A stretch of 64,000 nucleotides of DNA from Candidatus Eiseniibacteriota bacterium (GTDB taxonomy: Bacteria; Eisenbacteria; RBG-16-71-46; CAIMUX01; VGJL01), in the NCBI GenBank assembly GCA_041946735.1, contig JBHGAY010000016.1:63157-127156 (forward strand), written 5' to 3'. Shown here in pieces: positions 250 to 59,698 of the stretch (positions within the stretch are counted from its first letter, which is position 1; each line of letters starts with the position of its first letter). A model generated the notes under the pieces. The model ran no database searches and was not told where the DNA came from. It was given only the letters and a program-made list of their open reading frames with translations. The translations under genes and the position numbers were made by a program.

Positions 250-1800
250 ATGCCCCTTCGCAATCGCGTTCGCTCACTTTCCATCGCGGCGATCCTCTGC
301 GCCGTCTCGACTCTCGGTTCGATAACGGTCGCGGCCCCCATCGGAACGGAGATCACGTATCAAGGCGCGCTGCAAGACGGGGGATCGCCCGCGAATGGCT
401 CGTATGATTTCCGCTTCCGTCTGTTCGATGCTATTTCCGGCGGGAATCAGGTTGGATCTGGTGTCGCGGTCGAGAACCTGGCCGTGGCAAACGGCGTCTT
501 CACGGCCGTCATCGACTTCGGCCAAAACGGATTCGGCCCGGACGGCCGCTGGCTCGAAGTCGGAGTCCGCCCCGGTGCCGATTCCGATCCCGCTCCCTAC
601 ACGATTCTGACTCCCCGGCAACAGGTAACGGCGTCGCCCGTCTCCCTGTTCTCTCTGGGGTCGGGCGACAATCACTGGTCACAGAACGGTAGCGCCATCA
701 CGAACAACAACGATGGTTTCGTGGGCATCAACCGATCGACCAGGGTGACGACTTCGGAGTACTTCGGCGTTCAAGCGGCCACCAACGGCTATGGCGGAAT
801 GTACATGGCGACCGACGGGGCGGAAGGTCTGCCATTCTATGGTTATTCCACGGGAGCCAGGAGCGCGTGGACCTACCTGGATGGGGCCAACGGGAACTGG
901 TTCGTGCACAACGGGGCCGACCGGGTCGTCGTCACGAGCACGGGAGAGGTCGGCATTGGAACACTCTCGCCGGACTACCGTCTCGAGGTGACGTCCGGCG
1001 ACGGAGACGCCATCCATGGATCGACCACCGCGGCATTCTCGGCCGGCATTTCGGGCACGGGAACGACTGCGGGGGTGAGCGGGATTTGTGGCACGAGCAA
1101 TGGGTCCGGGGTCTTCGGCCAGAACAACAGCGCGTCGGGGACGGGTGTCCGAGGCGAAACCAGTGGGAACAGCGGAGCGGGTGTTGCCGGCTATGCCCCG
1201 TCGGGAACCGGCGTGTACGGCCAGACGAGCACCGGCTATGCCATCTACGGCAGCAACGGCGGCAGCAACCTGAGCGGCTACGCCGGCTACTTCAACGGGC
1301 GAGTGCACGTCGCGGGGATTCTCTCCAAGGCGAGTGGGTCGTTCAAGATCGATCATCCGCTGGACCCGTTGAACAAGACCCTGAGCCACTCGTTCGTGGA
1401 GAGCCCTGACATGATGAACATCTACAACGGGAACGTCACGACCGACGAGAAGGGACTTGCCCGTGTGGATCTCCCGGGATACTTCGAGGCTCTCAATCGC
1501 GACTTCCGCTATCAGCTCACCGTCCTCGGAGAGTTCGCGAATGCAACGATCGCGGAGGAAGTGAAGGACAACTCGTTCGTGATTCGCACCGACAAGCCCA
1601 GCGTGCGTGTGTCTTGGCAGGTGACAGGCATTCGGCACGATGCCTGGGCGGCCGCGCACCCGATAGTCGTGGAAGAGGAGAAGTCCTCGGCAGAGCAGGG
1701 ACACTACATAAATCCCGGCGCCTACGGCACGGCAGATCTCGGAAGCGAGATGGCGACGCCTGCCGCCGATGCGGTCTCCGCCGCGGGGACGGCCCGATGA
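250..1800 (+). CDS. Secreted fibre/adhesin-like protein: N-terminal TYQG domain, Gly-rich G-V-x-G repeats, C-terminal FKIDHPLDP (tail-fibre chaperone-like) region
   Basis: 516-aa ORF, AAGGAG RBS, signal peptide (..STLGSITVAA), ITYQGALQDGG..YDFRFRLFD..WLEVGVR..LTPRQ domain, GVxG repeats, GSFKIDHPLDP..LSHSFVESP; no CTD. Confidence 0.75.
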   Translation: MPLRNRVRSLSIAAILCAVSTLGSITVAAPIGTEITYQGALQDGGSPANGSYDFRFRLFDAISGGNQVGSGVAVENLAVANGVFTAVIDFGQNGFGPDGRWLEVGVRPGADSDPAPYTILTPRQQVTASPVSLFSLGSGDNHWSQNGSAITNNNDGFVGINRSTRVTTSEYFGVQAATNGYGGMYMATDGAEGLPFYGYSTGARSAWTYLDGANGNWFVHNGADRVVVTSTGEVGIGTLSPDYRLEVTSGDGDAIHGSTTAAFSAGISGTGTTAGVSGICGTSNGSGVFGQNNSASGTGVRGETSGNSGAGVAGYAPSGTGVYGQTSTGYAIYGSNGGSNLSGYAGYFNGRVHVAGILSKASGSFKIDHPLDPLNKTLSHSFVESPDMMNIYNGNVTTDEKGLARVDLPGYFEALNRDFRYQLTVLGEFANATIAEEVKDNSFVIRTDKPSVRVSWQVTGIRHDAWAAAHPIVVEEEKSSAEQGHYINPGAYGTADLGSEMATPAADAVSAAGTAR

Positions 1801-2342: not shown

Positions 2343-2769
2343 TCGTCGCGTAGACGACGCCGGGAATCCACGGTTCGCCTTCGCGTGCGGAGTTGTCGAG
2401 GGTGGGGGAGTGAAACTCCTTCACCCTCGATCCGTTGTAGTAGTCACGACTTGACCTTAAAGGTCCCCCCCGTGCTCCCGTGCTATTCCGTCGGACGTCG
2501 TCATGGCTTCCTCCTTGTGCCTCTGTTTCGACCACAGAGATCTCTAGCACAGAGGGGAGCGTGACGACACTGGCTCCCCAGGAAGGCCTTCCGCCTTCCG
2601 GAAGGTCAACTGCCAAGCAAGAATCGGACTACCCCAGATGCGTTGCTGGCAGCCCCGGCACATACCTCCCGTACTCAAAAGGCAGGTCATGGTAGAATTT
2701 GCAGCGCGAAACGTGAGTCGTTCGGCAGTAGGTCGGTTCCGTGCGAAACAGGCCGCTTCCGAGGACTCG

Positions 2770-3783
2770 CGTTGCTCGGCGTGTGCTCCAAGAACGTCGC
2801 AGCTCCCGGTTCAATGGTGATCGCCGGGGACCACATCTACGTCTCCAATACATTCAAAGCGGACATCTACAGGATCCTCGCCTCCCATCTTCCGGAGTGG
2901 GTGCGAACCTTCGACGAGGCGTGGATCGACATCGCGGTCCGGGGCTCCCACGCCTATCTGACGAGCGAGGTCGGCTTCTACGGGATCCGGGTGATGGATC
3001 TGTCGACACCAGAGGTGCCGGCCATCGTCAACGATGCCCTGCCAGGACATCGTCCGGGAGATCACGCTGGGAGAGGCGCACGCCTATACGTGCGGCGAGG
3101 GGCAAGGGCCGGATCGTCTCCTGGATGCCCGCGAGGGGCGTGGTCGAAACAATCGCCGGGGACAGCGGATCGTGCACGTCGATGACGTACAGGTAGAACA
3201 GATCCGGCTCTGGGGCAGGCCCAACATTGCCACGCTCCGCGGCGCGGTCCCGGTCTGCGAGGTCGAAGACCCGCAGTACCTCTACATTGGCGGAGAGCGT
3301 CTCACAGTCGTTGATGCGCACGACCCGCTTACCCCGCGTGTTCTCGGGAACCTCGGCCCTCCTAGCGAGGTCAACGCCATCATCGCCCTGGACGAGTACC
3401 TCTTCACGACCGGCGCAGGCTGGCAGGAGGGGCTCGTTGTCCTGCCGGCGCCGTGCAACCCGGCGCATGCGATCGATGACGGCTCGCTCCTCGGTCTTCG
3501 GGACGGTCTGCGCCTCGGCGCTCCATACCCGCAGCCCTCCGCCGCGGGGATCACCATTCCCCTCGATCTGCCTGCCGACGCAACCGCGCGCGCGAACGTC
3601 TACGACGCGGGGGGGCGACTCGTACGCGCGATCGCCACCGCCTCTCTCGGGCAAGGCGGCCGGCAGGACATCGCCTGGGACGGCCGGGACGACGACGGAC
3701 ACCGCGCGCCCGCCGGGGTCTACCTGGTGCGTGTCCGCGCGATGGGAATCGAGGCGACGTGCACCGTCGTACTCGCGCACTGA
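2770..3783 (+). pseudogene. Disrupted LVIVD-repeat beta-propeller protein with FlgD-Ig/T9SS-type CTD
   Basis: LVIVD-like units (GSHAYLT..GIRVMDLSTPEVP; YLYIGGERLTVVDAHDP) split by a +1 frameshift near 3048 and by inverted segments at about 3116-3280; intact CTD (VYDAGGRLVR..WDGRD..GVYLV); no signal peptide or clear start. Confidence 0.65.
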
Positions 3784-7952: not shown

Positions 7953-8717
7953 CTATGGGCAGTTCGCGTCTCCAGTCCGGCAGAGTTGCCGGTCATCGAA
8001 GTAGTAGCAGCCGCCTTCCGCGCCAGCACGGTACTGGATCGTCCGTCTGCCGCCGCCGGAGTAGCCGACCGTGATGGTGCCCTGTTCCCGGCTTCCCTGA
8101 ATCGCCCAGTTGCCGGCTCCTCCCGACTGGCCCGCGGCCCCCCAAGCCATCGTCTGGTTCCCCAGTCCATCCGTCGAAGAACCGGAGTAGCTCGACTCGC
8201 TCGAGTCGAAGAACTGTCCGTCCGGGCAGAGCGTGATCTTGCTCTCCGTCGATCCTGAATATCCCCAGTAGGTGCCAGCCATCATCTGCGCCAGTTGGGG
8301 ATCGCTCGGTCCGGCATCCACTGTCGGTCCTTTCACGGCGGCATCGAGAGATCCCTTCACATAGTCCATTCTCCCGTCCGACGCGCTCAAATCGATGTCG
8401 AGCCGGACGTTCTTGTCGATGAGGACGACGTCTCGCGTGATCGATCCGACCTGGACCTGATACTTTCCGGCGGGTAGATGATCGAAGCCGTACTTACCGA
8501 ACAGGTTCGTCTGATCGGTCGCGATGGGTTGGCCGGTCGATGCGTCAACGAGGACCACTTGCTCGGACGAAGCCGCTTCCGTTGAAGACTTGCCGACGAA
8601 GCCGCCGATCTTGAGACCGGCGTCTCCGGCGATGCCAGGCTCCGGTCGGGAAGAGCAGGACGCGACAAGCAAGGCAACGGTAAGAAGTCCGACGACGGTG
8701 ACAAGTCTCTCAGTCAT
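7953..8717 (-). CDS. Lipoprotein with a carboxypeptidase-regulatory-like (Cna-B/transthyretin-like) domain
   Basis: ATG 8717 with GGAGG RBS, lipobox LVASC, T...GKYGFDHLPAGKYQVQV motif. Confidence 0.7.
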   Translation of the reverse strand: MTERLVTVVGLLTVALLVASCSSRPEPGIAGDAGLKIGGFVGKSSTEAASSEQVVLVDASTGQPIATDQTNLFGKYGFDHLPAGKYQVQVGSITRDVVLIDKNVRLDIDLSASDGRMDYVKGSLDAAVKGPTVDAGPSDPQLAQMMAGTYWGYSGSTESKITLCPDGQFFDSSESSYSGSSTDGLGNQTMAWGAAGQSGGAGNWAIQGSREQGTITVGYSGGGRRTIQYRAGAEGGCYYFDDRQLCRTGDANCP

Positions 8718-8748
8718 TTTCGGGTCCCTCCAGCCTACATTGGCCGGG

Positions 8749-8764
8749 TGCAAAGATAGTTCCG
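8749..8764 (-). promoter_or_regulatory. Possible sigma54 -24/-12 promoter of the lipoprotein gene
   Basis: CGGAAC-TATCT-TTGCA (GG-N10-GC) about 30 nt upstream of the ATG. Confidence 0.35.
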
Positions 8765-9531
8765 ATCCTGTTGGCCTGGCAAGACAGGGAACCGGCAGAT
8801 AGGGGGCGGCCGACGGTTTCGAGGCCACCGTCGATCGGCGCGACCGTGGTCCTGGTCTTCTCTTCGCTAGATTGAAACGGGAAGCAGGATATCGGTCACG
8901 ATTCCGCGAACGGCGGAAACTGCGTCTGCGTTCGTGGAGGCGCAGAATCGGATCACAGAATCCGAGTCGGAGGCGCCGGGCACTCGTGCTCGTCGTCGGG
9001 TCGACGAACCTGACCGAGGCGGCGCTCGACCGGAACCTGGGGGTCGGCCCTCCGGTCTGCGCCAAGGCGCCGTGCAATTCGGCGTGACCTGGTCAGGACA
9101 GCGCGGGGGACCCGAGCGTTTGGTCTGCCGTCGGCCGGTCCTGCAAGGATCGTCGCAGGGATTGGCGGCACCATCCCCGATCAGACGGTACGATCCTGGG
9201 CCTCTCCCGGCTCGCGGGGCGCGAGGCCTTGGACCGTCGTTGCGCATGCGGCGGAGGATCCTTCCTTTCCGGCAAGGCTGACAAAGACCCGACCACCGGC
9301 GGCCTGACCGACCGCGATCGGTCCCCGGGCTTCCGACTCCCCAACGGCGCCCCTCCGATACTCGTCCCAAAAACCATTTGCATGTTCCGAGGGCCGATCG
9401 CGCATGAGCGATGTTGGACCGGCGCGAATCGACCTCGACTCTGGCTTTGCTCGACCGCGGATCGACCGCGCCACGGGAAATGGGAAACGACCCGTCGAAC
9501 CGAAGGGAATCGGATCGACAAGGAGAAAGAG

Positions 9532-10119: not shown

Positions 10120-10950
10120 ATGATGGCAACACTGCTACGAGGTAAGGGCGCAGGGAAGCCGGGAGGCGGCGGGTCGGCGATCCCGAGACCATGGCTGGCG
10201 GTGCCCGCCGTGCTGGGTCTCCTGTTCGGTGCCTCCGCCATCGCGGCTGCCGAGCCCGTCGATGACGAAGCGAGCGCCAGCGATCATTTGGGCTGGGTGC
10301 TCATCGACACAGCAGGTGGCACCCGTGAATGGGTCGTCGCTCCTCCGGAGCCGGGGACGCCGCTGGTGTCGGATGAGACCCTCGCGGTGGATCCGGTTCA
10401 GGCGGGCAATGCCGGTTGGATCGGCATCGTGTCGGACAGGGGAACCGAGGAGTGGGTGGTTGCCCCGCCTCCTGGTGCCGTGCCGGGCGATGTGACGGCG
10501 GCCGACGCAAGCCTGGTCGACGAAGAGGCGGCCGTCTCCGAGTCGAGGCAGGACTGGGTCTATCTGGAGACGGGACCCGGGTGCGGCGAGTGGGTGGTTC
10601 GGCCCCCATCGGCGTCGGGATCTTCGGCCTCTCTTGCGAACGCGGCGGGCGCCGGCCTCCGGCTCGACGCCGTCCCGCCGGTCGTTGCGGAAGGGGAGAG
10701 GGTGACGTTCTCAACCAAGGACAACCGCGTCTCCTCGCTTCAGATCCTTGTGTTCGACGTGACAGGACGGCAGGTGTACCAGAGCGCCGACGAGCCAGGC
10801 GGGACGGTCCGGTGGGATCTTCGTGACGATCGGGGGGCGCCCCTTTCCAAGGGGATGTACTTCTACAGCGCAAGCGGCCGGACATCCGCCGGCCGTCTGC
10901 AGTCCGCCAACCCGGGTAAGTTGCTGATCCTCGGCAGCGCTTCCAACTGA
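10120..10950 (+). CDS. Secreted protein with three W..G..EWVV.PP repeats and a T9SS-type CTD
   Basis: Hydrophobic signal region, three internal repeats, VFDVTGRQVY..WDLRD..GMYFY..GKLLIL. Confidence 0.7.
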   Translation: MMATLLRGKGAGKPGGGGSAIPRPWLAVPAVLGLLFGASAIAAAEPVDDEASASDHLGWVLIDTAGGTREWVVAPPEPGTPLVSDETLAVDPVQAGNAGWIGIVSDRGTEEWVVAPPPGAVPGDVTAADASLVDEEAAVSESRQDWVYLETGPGCGEWVVRPPSASGSSASLANAAGAGLRLDAVPPVVAEGERVTFSTKDNRVSSLQILVFDVTGRQVYQSADEPGGTVRWDLRDDRGAPLSKGMYFYSASGRTSAGRLQSANPGKLLILGSASN

Positions 10951-11351
10951 GGCGAAGGGGGAACGAAGCGCACGCGTAACGAAGATCAGCCGAGTGCGCT
11001 CTGACCAGAAGGCAGAGCGAGGGGCCGCCGGCACAGGGAGGTGCCGGCGGCTCAGTACGTGGCCCGTTCGGTTCCCGGATCGACGATTTCATCGGGGGGG
11101 GACGTAGAACCGGCGCTCGTGCGGTCACACGAGCGCCGATCCCCGTTCTCGAGCCTTATCCGCGTGTTAGCCGTAAAGGCCCTTGACGTGACCCATGACG
11201 TGCGCTCGACCGCCGTGGGAGCGCCGGGGTGGAAGAAGAGGTTGGCGATCACGTACGCCTCGGCCGCAGTGCGCCTCCGCCGCAGCGCGAATCGTGGTAA
11301 AATGTCTGGCGCGGCGGTCCCCCCGGAACGATTACATGGAGGGAAATGCCA

Positions 11352-13403
11352 ATGCTTCGCAAGCGGTCTGTCTGGGCGTTCCTCGCGGTCACGCTAGTCG
11401 CTCTCGGCGCGTCAGCGTCTTCCGCATCTGTCCCGCGGGTCGTCGTGCTCGAGTCCTTCGGCTCAGTCCTCTGAGACTTCTGCGTCGGAGCCCGGTGCGG
11501 GCTCCAGGCTTTGCAGGCGGACTACGGGTTCGATTCGGTCGTCCATTTCGAGCATCACGTCAGCGAGACGGATCCGTTCTGCACGGACGAGACGCTCGCC
11601 AGGTACGAATGGTACGGGGTCAACGGCGTGCCGGCCGTTGTGATCGACGGCTCATCGAGGGTCCTGGGAACCACTAACTGCGCATCCGCGGGCAGCAAGT
11701 TCCGTAACGCGGTCAATCAGAGGATGGGTGCGACCGGGTGGACGAGCCCGGTCCGCATCTCGGCGCACATGGGGGTCGAGGGAGCCTTGGCCCGGGTCAC
11801 GGCGAACTACGCGCTCGTCGATCCCGTAGCGCTCTCGAACCTTCGCGCGACGTTCGTCTTATACGAGGACAACGTCGAATGGTGCTGCGGATCGGGAGAA
11901 GTCCACACGTGGCACGGAGTGACACGGCGGATCCTGACGGAACCGATCGTCCTCCAGCGTATCGGGGACGAAGCGACCGTCACGATGGCGTTGCCGATCG
12001 ACCCAGGATGGGACGCGGGAGAGCTGCACGCCGTCGCGTTCCTTCAGGACTCCGTCTCCAAGGAGATCTTCCAGGGACAGGTGGTTCGCGATCTCTCGGT
12101 CGTCTTCCTCTCCCACATCGACTCCGTCCCGGACGGTTCCGCCGCCGTTCATTTCCCCGGGACGTTGCGCAACCTCCTCGCGACCGAGGCGGAGTTCACC
12201 CTCCGGATCACGAACCCGTTCGGGGACTGGCCGACCGAGTTCTTCGTCGGCGGAGACCCGCAGCCGCACACGGCACCGTTCCGTCTGGCGATCGCCCCGG
12301 GCGGATCTTGCGATCTCGCTCTCCACGCCCGCACCGACACGAGCAAGGTCGCGCGTAGCGGCACGTTCGAGGTGACCTGTGAGAGCACGGGTTCGACGGA
12401 GCGCAACGACTTCCGCGTCTTCAACGGGACGCCCGCCGTGATCCTCGTGGATCATGACTGGGGGAGCGCCTATGAGGCCTCGATGATGCGCGCCCTCGGC
12501 GCGAACGGCGTTCTCTTCGATCGATGGAACGTCATGACGCGGCGAGGGACCCCTCCGCTCGGGAAGATGAAGGGGGCGGACATCGTGATCTGGTTGAGCG
12601 AGGGCGCGGTCACCGACGTGCTGACGGACGGCGACGCCGTTGGGCTCTCGGCGTTCCTCGATTCGGGAGGCGCCCTCTTCCTCGCGAGCAACTACTACCT
12701 GAACGCCCTCCAAACACAGGATCCCTCATTTGCGCGAGCCTACCTCGGCGTCGACTCCGGGAATCTCGACCTGGGATACCGCAGGATGGACGGCGTCGCG
12801 GGGGACGAGATCGGTGACGGCATGGTCCTGCCGCTCATCTTCCCCCACGAGGAGTGGGCCTCGGGAGGGGACGGCATCGTCCCGACGGAAACCGCGACGA
12901 CCGACTTCGTCGCGGAAGGGGGCTCCCGCGCGATGATCCGAAACACCACGCCCGGGGGCGCCCGGTCGGTCTTCCTTGCCCAGCGCTTCGACGCGATCTC
13001 CGAGGACGATCCAGATCCGGACAACGCACGGACCCTGGTGAGGCGCATCTTCGACTGGCTGCGTCCGCAAGGGAATGCCGGCCTCGATGATCCGCCAGGC
13101 GCGGACGCCCTGCGGGAGGGAGTTCGGATCGTCGATGTCATCCCGAATCCCTTCCGCGGCGGCGTGCGGATCGCCTTCTTCCTCCCGGCATCGGATGTGG
13201 CGATCCCTGTGCGCCTCGACATCCTCGATGTGTCGGGACGGCGAGTTGCGACGGTTCTTGACGAGACGCTCGCGCCCGGACCCCACGTCGTTCGATGGGA
13301 AGGCCGGGACGAGGCGGGGCGGCGCGTCGCCCGGGGAGCCTACCTCGCCCGTCTCGTCACGCCTGGCGGGACGAGCTCGGCGAAGGCGCTTCTTTCGCGG
13401 TAG
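11352..13403 (+). CDS. Secreted Omp28/thioredoxin-like selenoprotein (UxxC) with further domains and FlgD-Ig/T9SS-type CTD
   Basis: In frame with ORF 11511..13403: GGAGGG RBS, ATG 11352, signal peptide MLRKRSVWAFLAVTLVALGASASSA, RVVVLESFGSVL-TGA(11472-11474)-DFC, later YGVNGVPAVVIDG (cis-Pro-like motif), VLYEDN, LHAVAFLQ; PNPF..WEGRD..GAYL CTD. Confidence 0.85.
11487..11505 (+). promoter_or_regulatory. Bacterial SECIS-like hairpin
   Basis: Perfect 8-bp stem GGAGCCCG/CGGGCTCC with a GTG loop; stem starts 12 nt after the in-frame TGA and the G-led loop 20 nt after it. Confidence 0.75.
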
Positions 13404-13593: not shown

Positions 13594-13914
13594 GGGACCT
13601 CCGCAGCTTCGGACCTGACGAACGCGACGTGGAAGGTCATACCCTCGCCTCGCTGGAGTTCTGGTAGATCCGTCCGGAGCTGGCTGCAATTGACCTTCCC
13701 GTTGACGCTGCCCGGCCGCACCGGATTGCTGGAGCGGGACGCCGGGTGACAACCCCGCTGAGACGGAGAATCACTTTTCCCCGCACACCGCGTGCGCTTT
13801 TGCCGTGCTCCTTCGTTCCACCAGTGATAGAGCACCGCTCGGCCGCAACCGGAGGGCCTGCTCGCGCCCCCGGCAGGAAGCCAAGACGACGAAGCGAGGA
13901 GGGAAGGAGAAGCG

Positions 13915-14487
13915 ATGAAACCAGATCGAATCGCGGCGCTCGTCGCCCTCGGACTGGCGGCCTTTGGGTCGCCGGCCCTGGCAGACGAGTTCGCCATCCC
14001 GTGGTGGACGCTCGACGGTGGCGGAACGGTCGAAACGTTGGCCGGCGGTGGCTTCGCCGTCTCCGGAACGATAGGACAGCACGACGCCGGGCAGCCCATG
14101 ATGGGCGGCACCTACCAGATCCAGGGCGGCTTCTGGACGGGGGCGCTGCGAATCGCGAGCGATGTCGCCGAGCAGGATGTCGAGGGCTCTGCGGGAGGGA
14201 CGGGAGGCCTCGTCTTCGGCCTCGACGGCTCGGCGCCGAATCCGTTCCGCACACGGTCGATCGTCTCGTTCGAGCTGCCGAGCCGGCAGCCCGTCAATCT
14301 CGCGATCTTCGATCTTTCCGGGCGGCTGTGCCGCACCCTGATCAACGAAGACGTCGAGGCAGGCCGGCACGAGCGCATGTGGGACGCGCGCGACAACGAA
14401 GGCCGCGAGGTCGCATCCGGAATCTACTTCGCGGTCCTCTCGAGCCCGCTTGGGCAACAGCGCCAGAAGCTCGTCAAGATCCATTGA
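13915..14487 (+). CDS. Small secreted protein with DGGG..SGTIGQ..GGFW domain and FlgD-Ig/T9SS-type CTD (paralog of 1797..2342)
   Basis: AAGGAG RBS, signal peptide ..GSPALA, WWTLDGGG..SGTIGQHDAG..YQIQGGFW, PNPF..IFDLSGR..WDARD..GIYF..KLVKIH. Confidence 0.85.
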   Translation: MKPDRIAALVALGLAAFGSPALADEFAIPWWTLDGGGTVETLAGGGFAVSGTIGQHDAGQPMMGGTYQIQGGFWTGALRIASDVAEQDVEGSAGGTGGLVFGLDGSAPNPFRTRSIVSFELPSRQPVNLAIFDLSGRLCRTLINEDVEAGRHERMWDARDNEGREVASGIYFAVLSSPLGQQRQKLVKIH

Positions 14488-14610
14488 TCCGATCGCCCGT
14501 CGACCCGCGTGCAATTCGATGCGATCTGCCTGCGGGATTCGTCGGGACAAAGTCCAAACAAGCAGGTCGGATCGGCGCAAGAAGCCGGGCCCGGCAGGAA
14601 GGGGAAGACC

Positions 14611-15588
14611 ATGTCTCTCAGCATGATTCGGAGGATGGCAGTAGCGGCAGCATTCGCCGCCGTTCTCAGCACGGGCGTTGCGCGGGCCACCGAGCCGGCC
14701 TCCACCGCGTTCACCTATCAAGGACAACTCACGCAGGCTGGCATTCCTGCGGACGGAGTCTACGAGTTCGAGTTCAGGCTCTACGACGCGCCGGCTGAAG
14801 GCAACCTCGTCGCCTCGATCCCAGGCCCGTACCCCGCCACCGTGACGGAAGGCCTCTTCACCGCCCGTCTCGACTTCGGCGACGCCGCCTTCACCGGCTT
14901 GCAGCTCTGGCTGGAGATGGGCGTGCGGCCGGAGGGCGATCCCGGTCCCTTCACCATCCTCAGTCCACGCCAGGAGCTCTCGGCAACGCCCTACGCGAGC
15001 GTCGCTCTGAACTCTCCGTTCCTTCGCGCTGGTTCTGGCCTCTACTACGAGGGACGCATGGCGCTCGGAAGCGATCAGCCGCCAGTCGGGATCCTCGACG
15101 TGGTCGGTCCGCCTCATGATGCGACCGTGATCTTGCCGAACAATGCGATCTCCTCGGCCGAGTGCTTGGACGAGCCTGGGATAAGCGGCGCCTTCGCCAC
15201 CGGGGAGGTCTGGTTCACCAGCGCGCCGGTGACGTTGCGCACCGCCAGCATCGAGTGCCCGGGACCAGGGTATGTACTCGCTCTCGGCAGCACCGACCTG
15301 AGCGGGGTTGCGTACAGCTCGGCAGGCGGATACGTCGGAATCGAGAACACCGCCGACCCCGGTTCCTCGGCGCCGCCCGACGCCCGCTGGGTCATCTTCG
15401 GCGACGACATGCCGAGCATCTACTACTCCTGCCCGGTCTCTGTGAACAAGGTTTTCCCGGTGACCGCAGGAAACCACACCTTCTATCTCCGCGGATGGCG
15501 CGGGTTCGGGGACAACTCGCCGCGGGCGAACCGCGCCGGCCTGACCCTTCTCTTCATCCCGTCTGCCTACGGGGCCCTGCCGCTGTAG
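14611..15588 (+). CDS. Secreted protein with N-terminal TYQG domain (paralog of the 250..1800 N-terminus) and a different C-terminal domain
   Basis: ATG 14611, signal peptide ..GVARA, FTYQGQLTQAG..YEFEFRLYD..WLEMGVR..LSPRQ..PYA; no CTD. Confidence 0.8.
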   Translation: MSLSMIRRMAVAAAFAAVLSTGVARATEPASTAFTYQGQLTQAGIPADGVYEFEFRLYDAPAEGNLVASIPGPYPATVTEGLFTARLDFGDAAFTGLQLWLEMGVRPEGDPGPFTILSPRQELSATPYASVALNSPFLRAGSGLYYEGRMALGSDQPPVGILDVVGPPHDATVILPNNAISSAECLDEPGISGAFATGEVWFTSAPVTLRTASIECPGPGYVLALGSTDLSGVAYSSAGGYVGIENTADPGSSAPPDARWVIFGDDMPSIYYSCPVSVNKVFPVTAGNHTFYLRGWRGFGDNSPRANRAGLTLLFIPSAYGALPL

Positions 15589-15717
15589 CGCCAGCATGGA
15601 AAGACCCCTCAGTCAGTCACTGAGGTGCGGAGGCGATCTTCTTCCCTTAGAGGATCGCCTCTTTCGCTTCGTTTTCGGGAGAGGACGGACAGGAAGGCTG
15701 GGCGTTTCGACGACGAG

Positions 15718-16263
15718 TCACGCTAGTATTCGCGGGTCGCGCCGGCGTCCCGGGCCGAGCCGCATGACTGCGATCCGTCGAGAGGAGTGCGCTTTCTGGT
15801 TCCGCTGGACGAGCGGAAGTAAGCGTCGCACCGCGCGAGCGAAGAGGGCGGGCGAGGCGCTCGCGCGAGCTCTCGCGCTTGCACAATCCCTTCCGCTGGC
15901 GCACCGGCCGGCCTGACGGCAGGCGATCAGCATCCGCACAGCGTCTTGCGAAAGCCCGGTCTCCCGCGCGATCCGCGGGATAGGAGCGCCGGCGCGCGCG
16001 AGACGCGCGGCGTCGGCGAGACGTCCGTCCGAGGCGAGCGGGACCGCACGACGCAGCCGTTGCGCCCGTCCGCGAAACGCGACGAACGGAACGACGCCGA
16101 TCGCGATGATGGCTCCGGCGGCGAGCCCCGCTAACCCTCCGCCCACGGCGATCCCGGATCGATCGAGCCACGCCGCTGCCGGTCCTGGCAGCTTCGGCCC
16201 GACACCGGCTACGATCAGCAGCCCCGCGGCCGTCGCGACGGCGCGCCAGGTCTTCCGGTTCAT
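15718..16263 (-). CDS. Membrane-anchored hypothetical protein with an HTH-like motif, last gene of the fliL-fliA operon
   Basis: ATG overlaps the fliA stop (ATGA), GGAGG RBS, two hydrophobic segments, LARAGAPIPRIARETGLSQDAVRML. Confidence 0.55.
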   Translation of the reverse strand: MNRKTWRAVATAAGLLIVAGVGPKLPGPAAAWLDRSGIAVGGGLAGLAAGAIIAIGVVPFVAFRGRAQRLRRAVPLASDGRLADAARLARAGAPIPRIARETGLSQDAVRMLIACRQAGRCASGRDCASARARASASPALFARAVRRLLPLVQRNQKAHSSRRIAVMRLGPGRRRDPRILA

Positions 16264-17036
16264 GCCGCCTCCTCCTTCACTCGCTCCATCTCCGCGATCC
16301 GCGCTCGCAGACGTTGGATCGTCCTCGTGTGGATCTGGCAGATCCGCGACTCTGTCAGCCGCAGCACGGTCCCGATCTGCCGGAAGGTCAGTCCTTCGTG
16401 GTAGTGGAGGGCGAGGATCGTCCGCTCCCTCTCCGACAGCGCGTCGAGAGCCGCAGCAAGCTCGCGCCGCTCCTCTGCGCGCTCGATCTCCTGTCCCGGC
16501 TCGGCGGCGCTGGCGTCGGCGATCGTCTCGGCCATTCGCGGGCCGCGCCTGCGTCCTTCCTCGCCCGGCGACTCGAGGTTCAGGAAGACCGGCGCTGCGC
16601 CGTCGTCCGCCCATTCCCGGTAGGTGGCGACCGGGATCTCCATCTCCTCGGCGATCTCCTCGCCGGCCGGCTCACGCCCGAGCCTCTGCTCGAGACGCGC
16701 GCGCGCCGCGTCGATGCGTCGGTTGCGCTCGCGCGCCGTCCGCGGGATCCAGGAAAGGCTGCGGCTCTCGTCGAGGATCGCGCCGCGGATCCGTGGCACC
16801 GCGAAGGAGCTGAAGGCGAGGCCTCGCGCGGGATCGAACGACTCGAGCGCCTGGACGAGACCGATCGTGCCGGCGCTGACCAGGTCCTCCAGCTCGAGCG
16901 TCGCGGGCAGCCGCTTCGCCAGATCGCGCGCGGCGTGGTGCACGAGACCGAGGTACTGATCGAGGAGCAAGTTGCGCGTCGCCTCGTCCCCGTACGCGCG
17001 GTAGCGCTGCCAGAGCTGATCGGTCAGGCGCGTCAT
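16260..17036 (-). CDS. fliA: RNA polymerase sigma factor FliA/WhiG (sigma28)
   Basis: EDLVSAGTIGL..FDP.RG..FA.PRIRGAILDE; region 4 LTFRQIG.VL.LTESRICQIH. Confidence 0.95.
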   Translation of the reverse strand: MTRLTDQLWQRYRAYGDEATRNLLLDQYLGLVHHAARDLAKRLPATLELEDLVSAGTIGLVQALESFDPARGLAFSSFAVPRIRGAILDESRSLSWIPRTARERNRRIDAARARLEQRLGREPAGEEIAEEMEIPVATYREWADDGAAPVFLNLESPGEEGRRRGPRMAETIADASAAEPGQEIERAEERRELAAALDALSERERTILALHYHEGLTFRQIGTVLRLTESRICQIHTRTIQRLRARIAEMERVKEEAA

Positions 17037-50492: not shown

Positions 50493-53063
50493 ATGAGCGC
50501 TGATCGCAGAATGCGAGACCTCCACCGCCTCGTCGAGTCCGGCCGCTACGAGATCCTGAGCCTCGACCTCTTCGACACGGTCCTGTGGCGGATGGTCCCA
50601 GAACCGGTCGACGTGCACTTCCTGGTCGCCCGCCGCCTACTCGACGGCGGATCGATCCACGATTCCTCCAGCATCGAGAGCTACGTGACCGAGCGGGTCC
50701 GGGCGGAGGAGAGAGCCAGGAAGGCGAAGAAGACGACCCCCGAGGTCACGCTAGCGGAGATCTTCGCCGAGTTCCCGGCCGGCTACCTGCGCGGAATCTC
50801 GCCCGCGCAGGCGGCAGAGGTCGAGTTCGAGGTGGAACGGAGCGTCGTCCGCGTGGACGCGGGGATGGCCGGGCTGATCGGGGAAGCGCGGCGGCGTGGC
50901 CTGAAGATCGCTTTCGTCTCCGACACCTACTTCGAGAGGCGGCAGATCGAGGCGCTGGCCACCATCCCGGCGGATCACCTGATCCTCTCGTGCGAGCACG
51001 GCCTTTCGAAGTATGCGGGACTTCACCGCGTCCTGCTCGAGCGCTCTCGCGTCGCCGGCGACCGGATCCTGCACGTCGGCAACGACTACCGATCGGACGT
51101 CGAAGGCCCCGGCGTCTTCGGGATCGAGCGCTTCTGGTATCGCAAGTACCCCGATCCGTTCACCGGGATGGTTGGCCGGGAGCTTCCGCGAACCTATACG
51201 CTTCGGCGCGACCTCGTCTCGTCCTCGGATCTTGGCCTGACGACGCTGCGCGGCCGCGCGATGTTCCACTGCGGCGACGACGAGCACGCCGCATGGGGAG
51301 CGGGCGTTCTCGGGCCGATCGTCTGCGGGTTCGCCGACTGGGTCGTCGAGAAGGCGCGCTCGCTCGGCATCGAGCGGCTGCTGTGCCTCATGCGCGAGGG
51401 GAGGATCTTGAAGCGCGTGATCGATGGCGCGATCGATGGGCCGGTTGGCGCGATCGACGGCTCAGGTGGCTCGAGTGGCGGCTTGGCGAACTCCGCGAAC
51501 AGGATCGAGACCGTCGAGCTCTTCGCGTCGCGCTACGCGGCCCTCCGCGCGGCGATCTTCGAAGGAACCGAGGAGGAGATCGCCTCGTTCGTCCATCGCC
51601 CGACGCCGCAGCCGCTCGAGCGGATCCTGACGCAGCTCGGCCTCGACCCTCGTGACCTCGACGCCGGGGACCCTTCCCGCCTGCTTTCGCCGGACGAAGC
51701 CAGGCGCCTCGTCCGCGCGATCGCGCGAAACGCGCGGCTGCGAGCGAAGGTCGTGGCGGCGAGCGCCGAATGCCGGCGCCGCCTGCTCCGCCACCTCCTG
51801 CCCGCTCTGGGCAGCGGCCGCGGCGGCCGCGGCGGCCGCGGCGGCCCCGGCCGCGACGCGACGATCGGCATCGTCGATCTCGGTTATCGCGGCACGATCC
51901 AGGAATGTCTCCAGCGGATCTGCGATCACGAGGGGCTGGGCGTCCGGACCCATGGCCTCTATCTCGTGACGGGCGGCGAGGTGCACCACACGCAGGCGAC
52001 CGGCGCCGTGGTCGAGGGCTGGCTCGCCGAGAACGGCCAGCCGGTCGGGATGGCCCACTCCTTCATGCGTTCGCCCGAGATCATCGAGCAGAGCCTGATG
52101 GCGGACTGCGGCACGACGACCGGCTACGCGGAGGACGGCCGGCCGATCCTCGACGAGTTCCGGATCGACGACGCGCAGCGCCGCCAGATCGCTTCGATCC
52201 AGGAAGGGCTTCTCGTCTATGCCGGGCTTTGGCAGGAGCACAAGAAGAGCGTCCTGCAACCTGCCGGCCGCCTCGACGGCGCCTGTCTCGACCGCCTGAA
52301 GCCGCTGTACCAGGGCATCTGCATCCGTTCGGTCGCGCGGCCGCTCGACGTCGAGCTGCGGCTTTTCGGCGGCTGGCGGCACGACGAGAACTTCGGGTCG
52401 GCAGGGGCGCGCACGCTGACCGAGGTGCCGGACCTCGATCCCTGGGAGAAGAGCCACATTTCCGCCCATCAGGTCGCGAGCCTCCCACACGGACGGCTCT
52501 ACTGGCCGTTCGGCTTCGCGCATCAGGTCAGCGCGAACATGGGGGAGGCGGTCGCCGGGATCTTCCTCCGCTCAGTCGATCCGGAGATCCTCAAGCACGC
52601 CGGTCCGCCCCGCCCGCTCGTTTTCTACTGGGACTCGGGCGCCGGTTTCTCCAATCAGCAGGCAGCGGTGCAGGAGTACCGGCTGAACAATCGTGGCAAT
52701 CTGTGGCATCGCATGAGCCTCAAGCTCGAGCGCGGGCGCAACCGGGCCGTCGGCATCAGTGTCGGCCTGGTCGGCGAAGTGCTCCAGATCACCGGAGTGC
52801 TCGTGCGCGTCGAGCCGGCGTCGCGGCCCACCGGCGAGCGCCGGGTCGTTCGATTCCCTCACGAGGCGATCGAGAAGCTGGGCTACGAGCCGCTGCACGG
52901 CAACCTCTATCTCGTCCGCGAAGATCCGGCCCTGCTCGTCGTGCCGACCGAAGGGATCGAGGACTTCACCGGGATGATGCACGTCGACCTCTTCTTCTCG
53001 ATCCTGTCGCCCGCCGGCGCCTGCGCTGTAGGGGCTGCGGCAGCTCCTTCCGAGGGATCGTGA
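50493..53063 (+). CDS. Large HAD-superfamily hydrolase-domain protein of the type found in glycan loci
   Basis: SLDLFDTVLWR (motif I), VSDTY, LHVGN...DV, LMREG, IVDLGYRGTIQ; GGGAG RBS. Confidence 0.8.
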   Translation: MSADRRMRDLHRLVESGRYEILSLDLFDTVLWRMVPEPVDVHFLVARRLLDGGSIHDSSSIESYVTERVRAEERARKAKKTTPEVTLAEIFAEFPAGYLRGISPAQAAEVEFEVERSVVRVDAGMAGLIGEARRRGLKIAFVSDTYFERRQIEALATIPADHLILSCEHGLSKYAGLHRVLLERSRVAGDRILHVGNDYRSDVEGPGVFGIERFWYRKYPDPFTGMVGRELPRTYTLRRDLVSSSDLGLTTLRGRAMFHCGDDEHAAWGAGVLGPIVCGFADWVVEKARSLGIERLLCLMREGRILKRVIDGAIDGPVGAIDGSGGSSGGLANSANRIETVELFASRYAALRAAIFEGTEEEIASFVHRPTPQPLERILTQLGLDPRDLDAGDPSRLLSPDEARRLVRAIARNARLRAKVVAASAECRRRLLRHLLPALGSGRGGRGGRGGPGRDATIGIVDLGYRGTIQECLQRICDHEGLGVRTHGLYLVTGGEVHHTQATGAVVEGWLAENGQPVGMAHSFMRSPEIIEQSLMADCGTTTGYAEDGRPILDEFRIDDAQRRQIASIQEGLLVYAGLWQEHKKSVLQPAGRLDGACLDRLKPLYQGICIRSVARPLDVELRLFGGWRHDENFGSAGARTLTEVPDLDPWEKSHISAHQVASLPHGRLYWPFGFAHQVSANMGEAVAGIFLRSVDPEILKHAGPPRPLVFYWDSGAGFSNQQAAVQEYRLNNRGNLWHRMSLKLERGRNRAVGISVGLVGEVLQITGVLVRVEPASRPTGERRVVRFPHEAIEKLGYEPLHGNLYLVREDPALLVVPTEGIEDFTGMMHVDLFFSILSPAGACAVGAAAAPSEGS

Positions 53064-58116: not shown

Positions 58117-59475
58117 CTAGACCGCGTTCTCCTCGTATTCGTGCAGCTTGTTCCGCAGGGTCCTTTCGCTGATCCCAAGCAGCTTCGCGGCACGCGCGCG
58201 GTTGCCGCCCGTGGCTTCGAGCGCTTTCTCGATCGTGATTCTCTCGATGTCCTTCAGATTGAGGACCGCCTTGGCAGAGGACGACCTGCGGCCGTCGCCT
58301 CCCGGCGCGGCGAAGCCGTCCAGACCGAAGCTCTCGGGCTCGATCGATCCGGACCGGGTGAGGATGACGGCACGCTCGACGGCGTTCTGAAGCTCGCGAA
58401 TGTTCCCCGGCCACTCGTGTTGGCGCAGGGTCTGGAGCGTGCGCTCGGGGACGGAAGGCGCCTTGACCCCGAGCTCGCGGGCGGCCTGCTCGACGAAGTG
58501 CTTCACGAGCAGAGGCAGATCCTCCATCCGCTCGCGCAGCGGAGGGGTGCGAACCGGCATCACGCAAAGCCGGTAGTACAGATCCTGCCGGAAGCGCCCC
58601 GCCTCGATCTCCGCCTTGAGATCCCGATTGGTGGTGGCGACGATACGGACATCGACTTTGACCGGCTTCTGCCCTCCAACCCGTTCGAACTCTTGCTCCT
58701 GGAGCACCCGCAGCAGCTTCGCTTGAAGCTCCGGGCGCATCTCGGACACCTCGTCGAGGAGCAGAGTTCCTCCATGAGCTCGTTCGAACGCTCCGGGGAA
58801 ACGGGCTGTCGCTCCGGTGAACGCTCCGCGCTCGTGACCGAAAAGGGTGCTCTCCACGAGCCCCTCGGGAAGCGCTGCGCAGTTTACTGTGATGAACGGC
58901 GCTTCCCGTCGTGACGACTGCTCGTGAATCGCCCGGGCGAACAGCTCCTTGCCGGTCCCCGATTCGCCCTGGAGGAGGACAGTCGCCCCGGTCGGCGCGA
59001 CTGTCGACAGAATGTCCATCACCTTGCGCAGCGCCTTGCTTTCGCCGACGATCGCGCGCTCGCCGCGCAGGGAGCGGATCTCCCGCTCGTAGTTCTCGTT
59101 CTCGCGCCGCAGGCGGCAGACCTCGAGAGCATTGTTCACGGCCAGACGAAGCGCCTCGAATCGGAAAGGCTTCGTGAGGTAGTCGATCGCGCCCCGGCGC
59201 ATCGACTGGACGGTGTGCTCCACGCTCGCGTACCCGGTGGTGAGGATGACCGGGATCTCCTGTCCCTCTTCACGAAGCTGATCGAGCAGATCGAGTCCGG
59301 AGGCGCCGGGCATCCGCGCGTCGGAAATGATCAGGTCGAATGGCTGCTGCTGGATGACCTTCAGCGCGTCTCCTACGCTGCTGGTCAACACCGCCTGATG
59401 TCCGATCTTCGCCAGGTAGTCCTCGAGCACCGCCACCGCCAGGGGCTCGTCATCGATACAGAGGATTCTGGACAT
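58117..59475 (-). CDS. Sigma54-dependent response regulator (NtrC family), likely flagellar activator
   Basis: Receiver (IDDE, SDARMP, KP), GESGTGKE, GAFTGA, LLDEV, WPGNIREL, Fis-type HTH (LLGISERTLRNKL). Confidence 0.93.
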   Translation of the reverse strand: MSRILCIDDEPLAVAVLEDYLAKIGHQAVLTSSVGDALKVIQQQPFDLIISDARMPGASGLDLLDQLREEGQEIPVILTTGYASVEHTVQSMRRGAIDYLTKPFRFEALRLAVNNALEVCRLRRENENYEREIRSLRGERAIVGESKALRKVMDILSTVAPTGATVLLQGESGTGKELFARAIHEQSSRREAPFITVNCAALPEGLVESTLFGHERGAFTGATARFPGAFERAHGGTLLLDEVSEMRPELQAKLLRVLQEQEFERVGGQKPVKVDVRIVATTNRDLKAEIEAGRFRQDLYYRLCVMPVRTPPLRERMEDLPLLVKHFVEQAARELGVKAPSVPERTLQTLRQHEWPGNIRELQNAVERAVILTRSGSIEPESFGLDGFAAPGGDGRRSSSAKAVLNLKDIERITIEKALEATGGNRARAAKLLGISERTLRNKLHEYEENAV

Positions 59476-59698
59476 CTTTCTCCTGTCCGGTCTGCGATAG
59501 CACTTGCTCACGCCCACAACCGAAACCACTCGCGTGCGAGGATACCACACCATCCGCCGCTCTGCAGCCCTTCTCGTCGATGGCGGCGGTTACGTTCTCT
59601 AGTCTCTCGAATTGTCTGGCGCGGAGCTGGGAGGGACCGGCGACGCTCGGGGGAGCCGCGACACTTGGGTCTTCTGAACTACTGGGCAGGTCAGGGAC

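Follow-up and report, generated by a model that had tools for sequence, protein, structure and literature searches.

The window analyzed here is a 64,000-nucleotide stretch of contig JBHGAY010000016.1, from an uncultured soil bacterium of Candidatus Eiseniibacteriota. The gene at positions 11352 to 13403 of its forward strand is, judging from its own sequence and those of its relatives, very probably a genuine but miscalled gene in which TGA is recoded as selenocysteine (Sec, or U). A listing of open reading frames (ORFs) cuts this gene in two, giving a 42-amino-acid piece at 11346 to 11474 and a 630-amino-acid ORF that runs from a TTG at 11511 to 13403. When TGA is translated as U, one 683-codon frame extends from the ATG at 11352 to a TAG at 13401 to 13403, with the TGA at 11472 to 11474 as its sole interruption. 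The product has 683 residues and a single recoded codon, U41, in the context RVVVLESFGSVL-U-DF-C (...LESFGSVL-U-DF-C-VGARCGL...). Residues 1 to 26, judged by eye, have the layout of a signal peptide (a basic LRKR, a hydrophobic run, and the small residues ASASSAS), and the same layout is found in all paralogs. The TTG-started form opens with LQADYGFDS and has no signal-peptide-like stretch. An extra in-frame ATG lies at 11346, 3 nucleotides from the ATG at 11352, and in the paralogs GGAGGAGG precedes the ATG. An initial annotation, made from the sequence before any database search, had proposed a 683-residue read-through protein with Sec41; its ORF, ATG, ribosome-binding site, single TGA, and downstream hairpin all lie where it placed them, and translation with TGA as U returns its U41-D-F-C44.

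Sequencing error does not account for the TGA, which is carried with 0 differences by contigs of two other studies; the covering records extend over 11370 to 12185 at a depth of 10.9 (X2) and over 11300 to 11483 (X3). In a further run (X4), a low-depth contig that does not span the TGA joins position 11841 to 11950 by 30 other letters, and this contig probably comes from a different strain or another organism. A promoter scan returned 0 sites, and the one terminator-like site, which lies inside the gene, matches the count expected by chance.

In homologs, the position of U41 is a column of Sec or Cys. A close comparison covered 39 N-terminal domains (N-domains) from the same genome and from genomes of the same family or order, and the codon at this column was TGA in 32 and TGC in 7. 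Across 77 distinct N-domains, including those from other phyla, it was TGA in 51, TGC in 25, and TGT in 1, and Trp was found in none. Only two columns were invariant among the 76 aligned N-domains, the U/C column and the Cys three residues later. A FastTree phylogeny of these 76 domains requires at least 8 changes between Sec and Cys, 7 of them forced by well-supported branches, and the Sec41 gene is a long branch of a clade (support of 99) made up of 37 Sec and 4 Cys forms. Relatives are labeled Candidatus Eisenbacteria, and more distant full-length relatives Krumholzibacteriota and Fibrobacteraceae.

The genome itself carries eight copies of the N-domain, found by a profile search, six with TGA and two with Cys at the column. 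Four TGA copies are long forms like the gene described here, and the other two are short forms that consist of a signal peptide, the N-domain, and a tail. The TGA falls at precursor codon 41 in the long forms, as it does in one short form, the copy on contig C71. This short paralog also terminates at a TGA stop, and TGA therefore has both meanings within one gene. Other stops are used as well: among the Sec-type genes read in loci L021 to L135 (n = 43), the terminal stop was TAG in 23, TAA in 11, and TGA in 9, and among Cys-type genes in the same loci it was TAG in 13, TGA in 10, and TAA in 1. In genomes of the same order, three to five family members also occur in tandem, mostly with one in-frame TGA each.

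The machinery for selenocysteine insertion is encoded in the same genome, an assembly of 4.89 Mb in 72 contigs that is 94.8% complete and has a G+C content of 68.4%. A tRNA-Sec scored 72.1 bits (gathering score, 47) and was also called by ARAGORN as tRNA-SeC with anticodon tca. Matches to selA (478.9 bits; cutoff, 267.9), selB (349.1 bits; cutoff, 242.25), and selD (388 bits; cutoff, 125) were all above their cutoffs. The selD gene (contig C2:108941-109867, minus strand; locus L018) has one in-frame TGA of its own, in the context ...ACAG-U-ASKI..., and Sec forms are well known in this gene family. Its TGA is followed by a 12-nucleotide spacer, an 8-bp stem, and a 3-nucleotide GGA loop that starts with G. 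This is the same recoding layout as in the Sec41 gene, although the protein is unrelated and the loop is GGA rather than GUG, and one selB product could plausibly read both hairpins. The initial annotation had held that homologs should show Cys or TGA at the column, that selA, selB, selC, and selD should be present, and that independent reads should carry the TGA; the homologs, the gene search, and the independent assemblies all agree with it.

The hairpin after the TGA of the Sec41 gene has the sequence GGAGCCCG/GTG/CGGGCTCC and forms an 8-bp stem and a 3-nucleotide loop, 12 nucleotides past the TGA, in the manner of a selenocysteine insertion sequence (SECIS). The 42 nucleotides 3' of the TGA fold at −21.9 kcal/mol (z score of −2.96), with 1 of 200 shuffles as good, and the hairpin is present in the minimum-free-energy structure at an ensemble frequency of 74%. 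At a genomic G+C content of 68.4%, stability alone is weak evidence, and the case for a SECIS-like element is built on sequence conservation and covariation, not on fold stability. The four long TGA copies of the genome share an identical GCCCGGTGCGGGC, within which the core GCCCG-GTG-CGGGC is the same in 4 of 4; the core is absent from the long Cys paralog, where TGC and GCGTATCAGGGAC stand in the corresponding position and no hairpin forms. In the short TGA copy on contig C18, the core reads ACCCG-GTG-CGGGT, in which both partners of the outer pair have changed and still pair.

Hairpin statistics were calculated from the 51 TGA copies aligned without gaps, using a specified 8-bp structure, 500 shuffles, and seven slides. 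In these copies, 68.8% of cells were paired versus 60.9% in shuffles, and the covariation score was 0.204 versus 0.116, with 0 of 500 shuffles as high in either case; the true hairpin register also scored better than all six slid registers. A close set of 31 distinct TGA copies, chosen by taxonomy to represent the same genome and the same family or order, was paired at columns 27 and 35 in every copy, as C-G in 22 and as G-C in 9. This switch couples a synonymous Ala/Ser codon change to a Gly-to-Ala change, and the codon combinations are GCC with GGG or GGC, GCG with GCG, and TCG with GCC. In 30 of the 31 close copies, the loop opens with G. This base occupies the last position of an Arg codon (CGG in 29, AGG in 2, and CGT in 1 of 32 copies); among the 241 Arg codons at other sites of these domains, 97 (40%) end in G. 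More distant TGA copies have other hairpins at a similar distance, such as GGGCC-CGTGC-GGCCC and GAGYGCC-CGTGA-GGCGCTC. Mean folding energy over the 45 nucleotides past the codon was −14.9 kcal/mol in TGA copies and −11.7 kcal/mol in Cys copies (Mann-Whitney P = 1.4e-4).

Several observations weigh against this element, or against the strength of the case for it. A wider fold, over 65 nucleotides, reached a z score of only −0.85 against shuffles, and three paralogous hairpins were no more stable than shuffles (z scores of −0.75, −0.30, and +0.85). RNAalifold found no consensus pair in all 51 TGA copies and only a 3-bp helix (−1.8 kcal/mol) in 32 close copies; in distant copies, the hairpins lie in different registers. 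Among the close relatives, only about half keep the three outermost pairs of the 8-bp stem. Kinship among the sequences inflates the significance given by both the shuffle tests and the Mann-Whitney test. In addition, the Cys copies in L043 and L050, which are nested among Sec forms, retain a hairpin, GCGCG-CTG-CGCGC, with C as the first loop base, so part of the hairpin can be explained by the peptide A-R-C-A alone. By sequence, these two copies look like recent conversions of Sec to Cys. On balance, the comparison favors the initial annotation, which had expected the hairpin in TGA copies only: TGA copies keep it, and 5 of 7 close Cys copies lack it. An Rfam scan of positions 11300 to 11700, with E values up to 10, returned no relevant family and a chance match to a long noncoding RNA (E value of 4).

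Structure prediction places U41 in a thioredoxin fold, with the U-x-x-C motif where the first helix begins. AlphaFold2, run with the 76 N-domains, gave a model with a predicted local distance difference test (pLDDT) score of 97.1 and a predicted template modeling (pTM) score of 0.92, in which a thioredoxin fold is followed by a beta-sandwich. Model residues 4 to 10 form a strand and residues 17 to 31 a helix, with U at position 14 and C at position 17. The top Foldseek matches were 2axo (DUF1223) and 5y1a (HBP35; TMq of 0.76), both with an E value of 1.4e-10. Searching the PDB with the N-domain profile returned the archaeal thioredoxin 1fo5 (E value of 3.1e-10), 1nho (1.9e-8), and HBP35 (2.1e-8). 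The profile alignment puts U-x-x-C on WCGYCP of HBP35 and on CPHC of 1fo5, with Sec41 at the first Cys of WCGYCP.

HBP35, a thioredoxin-like hemin-binding surface protein of P. gingivalis, has the same N-domain of a thioredoxin fold with an immunoglobulin (Ig)-like sandwich, and like the Sec41 protein it carries a C-terminal domain for export. It differs in having Cys instead of Sec, in lacking the second Ig-like domain and the amidotransferase-like domain of the Sec41 protein, and in sharing only 16% identity in the structural alignment. Recombinant HBP35 is reported to reduce insulin faster than Escherichia coli thioredoxin, and a C48S/C51S mutant to be inactive (PMC2907840). The Sec41 protein would probably act as a thiol-disulfide oxidoreductase outside the cytoplasm.

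Omp28 (PDB 2r2c; TMt of 0.66, E value of 2.1e-4 in Foldseek) and DUF1223 (PDB 2axo, Atu2684; TMq of 0.61) share fold elements and weak profile matches with the N-domain. In a Pfam search of the whole protein, FlgD_ig was the sole family over threshold, with weak matches to Omp28, DSBA, and DUF1223. The Omp28 match (PF11551; 14.6 bits, E value of 0.029) and the DUF1223 match (13.7 bits) were far under the gathering scores of 34.9 and 30.7, and neither family is described as a selenoprotein in the sources consulted. The assignment of an Omp28/thioredoxin-like domain in the initial annotation holds by fold, in the model, the Foldseek search, and the profile search of the PDB.

Downstream of the N-domain, the 443 C-terminal residues were modeled from 50 sequences with a pLDDT of 91.7. 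The model contains, in order, an all-beta domain, an alpha/beta domain, a disordered linker, and a terminal beta-sandwich. The first of these appears to be a second Ig-like domain, with strands throughout residues 8 to 118 of model m48586ec6555d. With the 443-residue model as the query, Foldseek gave just low-TM multidomain matches, and VIA-align resolved the alpha/beta part as a class I glutamine-amidotransferase-like domain, matching 2gk3 (Z score of 19.1, root mean square deviation of 2.8, 197 residues aligned), 3rht (Z score of 17.3), and 1t0b (Z score of 16.1). The invariant and near-invariant columns of the C-terminal part that contains this domain include no Cys or His, and a classical amidotransferase triad is for that reason unlikely. 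The features of the gene and its copies are collected in Table 1.

Table 1. Coordinates of the Sec41 gene, its parts, and its copies in the same and related genomes
Feature	Position	Strand	Basis or remark
Shine-Dalgarno-like GGAGG	11338..11342	+	9 nt before ATG 11352, read from sequence
Selenoprotein precursor coding sequence (predicted)	11352..13403	+	683 residues plus TAG; full-length alignment with four paralogs
Putative signal peptide, residues 1-26	11352..11429	+	Cleavage site inferred
UGA codon 41, predicted to be read as Sec, first position of U-x-x-C	11472..11474	+	Sec/Cys column, HBP35 alignment
Cys44, predicted resolving cysteine of UxxC	11481..11483	+	Invariant across 76 N-domains, as is only the U/C column besides
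SECIS-like hairpin, 8-bp stem and GUG loop	11487..11505	+	Overlaps codons for G-A-R-C-G-L
N-domain, thioredoxin fold then Ig-like beta-sandwich (HBP35/Omp28/DUF1223-like)	11433..12086	+	Model, Foldseek, profiles
Second all-beta (Ig-like) domain, residues ~247-360	12090..12431	+	Secondary structure of model m48586ec6555d
Alpha/beta domain, class I glutamine-amidotransferase-like (ThuA-like) fold, residues ~361-573	12432..13070	+	VIA-align
C-terminal FlgD-Ig-type domain, likely type IX sorting tail	13125..13400	+	Pfam FlgD_ig, PorU-model tail
Long TGA copies, same genome	11352-13403 (this gene); C23:404-2428; C24:3-1922 and C24:2116-4146		C24 pair in tandem, minus strand
Short TGA copies, same genome	C71 ~58176-59627; C18 ~14389-16344 (minus)		Signal peptide, N-domain, and tail
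Cys copies, same genome	C12:233465-235486; C26 ~52100-52860		C12, long form; C26, Cys domain within larger frame
Tandem arrays, relatives	G022:C10 ~35.4-48.6 kb; G015:C7 ~841-854 kb; G019:C8; G007:C15
Cys copy L043, N-domain	2761-3417	-	Nested among Sec forms
Cys copy L050, N-domain	584-1240	-	Nested among Sec forms

Two alternatives to recoding at codon 41 were weighed, and both are highly improbable. One takes the TGA as a true stop, so that a 40-codon leader ORF precedes a separate 630-amino-acid gene from TTG 11511, or the locus is a pseudogene with a nonsense mutation. Gene callers do produce such entries (630, 639, and 633 amino acids), and genes of this genome can end in TGA, the C71 paralog being one example, as do 9 of 43 Sec-type family genes; however, the codon is TGA in 51 of 77 homologs with Cys in the other 26, and the 40 codons before it show in-frame conservation and encode both the signal peptide and the first strand of the fold. 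The shortened form would lack that strand, both active-site residues, and the export signal, while the layout is intact in a full-length Cys form (P0010). In the other alternative, which has no specific evidence in its favor, a variant code or near-cognate suppression would place Trp or Cys at the UGA with no selenium involved. Elsewhere, Cys is known to stand in for Sec at UGA when selenium is short. A general rereading of UGA is at odds with the genes that TGA ends in the same 68% G+C genome, Trp occupies the column in 0 of 77 homologs, the genome has the complete Sec machinery, and the gene has a hairpin that matches. Recoding of UGA-41 as Sec, with a hairpin shared by its relatives, is the reading followed below.

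Whether the protein leaves the cell by type IX secretion is less certain. The FlgD_ig match covers residues 607 to 666 and scores 29.2 bits in the whole protein and 32.4 bits with the tail alone (cutoff, 27). Residues 594 to 669 also match positions 999 to 1076 of the PorU model, weakly, at 22.6 bits against a whole-model cutoff of 420. The search for type IX machinery covered PorU and SprA; the genome encodes a PorU at 596 bits (cutoff, 420) and a SprA at 355.9 and 127.6 bits, or 492.2 bits summed with neighbors in frame (cutoff, 200). The secretion domain that the initial annotation saw at the C terminus corresponds to a tail of the FlgD-Ig type, resembling the one on PorU. A protein that is a genuine selenoprotein but stays periplasmic or is anchored in some other way, with the FlgD-Ig domain merely another Ig-like module, would fit the Pfam match of the tail, the low score of the PorU-model match, and the fact that canonical type IX sorting-domain models in NCBIfam and Pfam were unmatched by the tail at E values up to 0.1. 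It fits less well with a genome in which PorU and SprA are both above their cutoffs, and in which most of 54 PorU-model matches, the Sec41 gene included, fall on tail positions ~960 to 1095 at the ends of large frames. The FlgD-Ig-type domain is also the last domain in long and short forms alike, and HBP35, a structural relative, has been described as Por secretion system cargo (PMC3120885). We regard the periplasmic or otherwise anchored protein as rather unlikely, though well short of negligible, and a type IX route for the Sec41 protein as moderately likely.

The sequence of events that would follow from recoding and type IX export can be outlined. SelB with Sec-tRNA(Sec) would bind the hairpin 12 nucleotides downstream, allowing the ribosome to read UGA-41 as selenocysteine. 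The signal peptide would take the precursor across the inner membrane, and the type IX system would most likely recognize the FlgD-Ig-type tail and deliver the protein to the cell surface or the medium. The active part would be the N-terminal thioredoxin fold with U41-x-x-C44, in which Sec would replace the attacking Cys of the HBP35 CxxC, and the Ig-like and amidotransferase-like domains would probably hold or present the substrate.

A related selenoprotein family is already in print. The NCBIfam model NF045500, "Omp28-related selenoprotein," matches the Sec41 protein with an E value of 4e-11 and a score of 42.9 bits, under the cutoff of 200. The match spans residues 28 to 245 on profile positions 38 to 266 and leaves profile positions ~267 to 377 unmatched. 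The paralogs in the genome score 38 to 54 bits against this model and the best sequence in the phylum 73.4 bits, and the cutoff was reached in 0 of 151 genomes of the phylum and 0 of 5 genomes of other phyla. The model is listed as "Hypothetical protein GOS_C" in a table of a 2026 review (PMC13188914). GOS_C was predicted in 2008 from ocean metagenomes, with 74 Sec sequences and 312 Cys homologs, and is described in that study as having a thioredoxin-like fold, a UxxC, and SECIS-like elements (PMC2398784). The novelty claimed in the initial annotation was overstated in this respect, as this related UxxC family has been published since 2008.

NF045500/GOS_C and the Sec41 family share a homologous N-domain, a UxxC in a thioredoxin-like fold, a SECIS-like element, and coexisting Sec and Cys forms; the likeness to NF045500 is that of a profile match, the UxxC and SECIS-like element are those stated for GOS_C in 2008, and the Sec column is presumably shared. 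They differ after the N-domain. The C-terminal ~100 profile positions of NF045500 match thrombospondin-type-3 (TSP3) and dockerin regions, whereas the Sec41 protein continues with its Ig-like domain, amidotransferase-like domain, and FlgD-Ig tail. Matches to this C-terminal part were found at L147:1501-1782 (minus strand) and L151:1501-1776 (plus strand), in an Ignavibacteriaceae metagenome-assembled genome, and consist of dockerin type I and TSP3 repeats. A type IX tail had been considered for this part of NF045500 and was dropped, as the two matches scanned are dockerin plus TSP3; the NF045500 family probably ends in a calcium-binding docking module. By sequence profile, the Sec41 family is homologous to NF045500 in the N-domain and is not a member of that equivalog. 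The Sec41 protein represents a divergent, multidomain branch, probably exported by type IX secretion, within an already published selenoprotein superfamily.

Literature searches from which most subscription journals were absent found no paper linking selenoproteins to Omp28, HBP35, or Eisenbacteria. Searches of the same scope that paired selenocysteine with "type IX secretion" found one genome paper with both terms and no established link between them, and no paper combined selenoprotein, outer membrane, secreted, bacterial, and UxxC.

In public protein sets, the Sec forms appear as truncated hypothetical proteins of 630, 639, and 633 amino acids that start just past the hairpin, as the initial annotation had expected of gene callers, and the Cys form P0010 is whole, at 686 amino acids. 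These truncated database entries lack the signal peptide and the active site. The curated model is far under its cutoff across the phylum (0 of 151 genomes), and a model built for this family would correct many genes together.

Neighboring ORFs yielded no informative family beyond a few weak matches. Just upstream, a 276-amino-acid ORF at 10120 to 10950 (plus strand) weakly resembles the PorU tail and CHU_C at its C terminus and may likewise encode a type IX cargo. On the opposite strand, the ORF at 10301 to 11128 had no match. A 374-amino-acid ORF at 7953 to 9077 (minus strand) has weak SdrD_B and carboxypeptidase-regulatory-like (CarboxypepD_reg) matches, both below cutoffs, and a 608-amino-acid ORF at 13771 to 15597 (minus strand), directly downstream, had no Pfam or NCBIfam match and, in DNA so rich in G+C, may or may not be a gene.

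UxxC selenoproteins of the thioredoxin fold are the commonest known type, and the Sec41 family leaves the picture of selenocysteine insertion unchanged. It is useful for annotation and for the biology of the phylum, and would not surprise a specialist. Within that frame, the family shows repeated exchange of Sec and Cys (at least 8 changes in the tree of 76) and provides what appears to be a clear case of a SECIS hairpin constraining its encoded peptide (A-R-C-G or A-R-C-A). It would add an exported, probably surface-displayed selenoprotein, with several paralogs per genome, to a poorly known soil phylum. A broader and more speculative possibility, which we hold to be unlikely on present evidence, is that Eisenbacteria and neighboring phyla use type IX secretion to display a multicopy family of surface selenoenzymes, in which a selenol thioredoxin center joined to Ig-like and amidotransferase-like domains would make up an undescribed extracellular redox enzyme. 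If this is true, these proteins would be, so far as the literature searched shows, the first type IX cargo selenoproteins in print.

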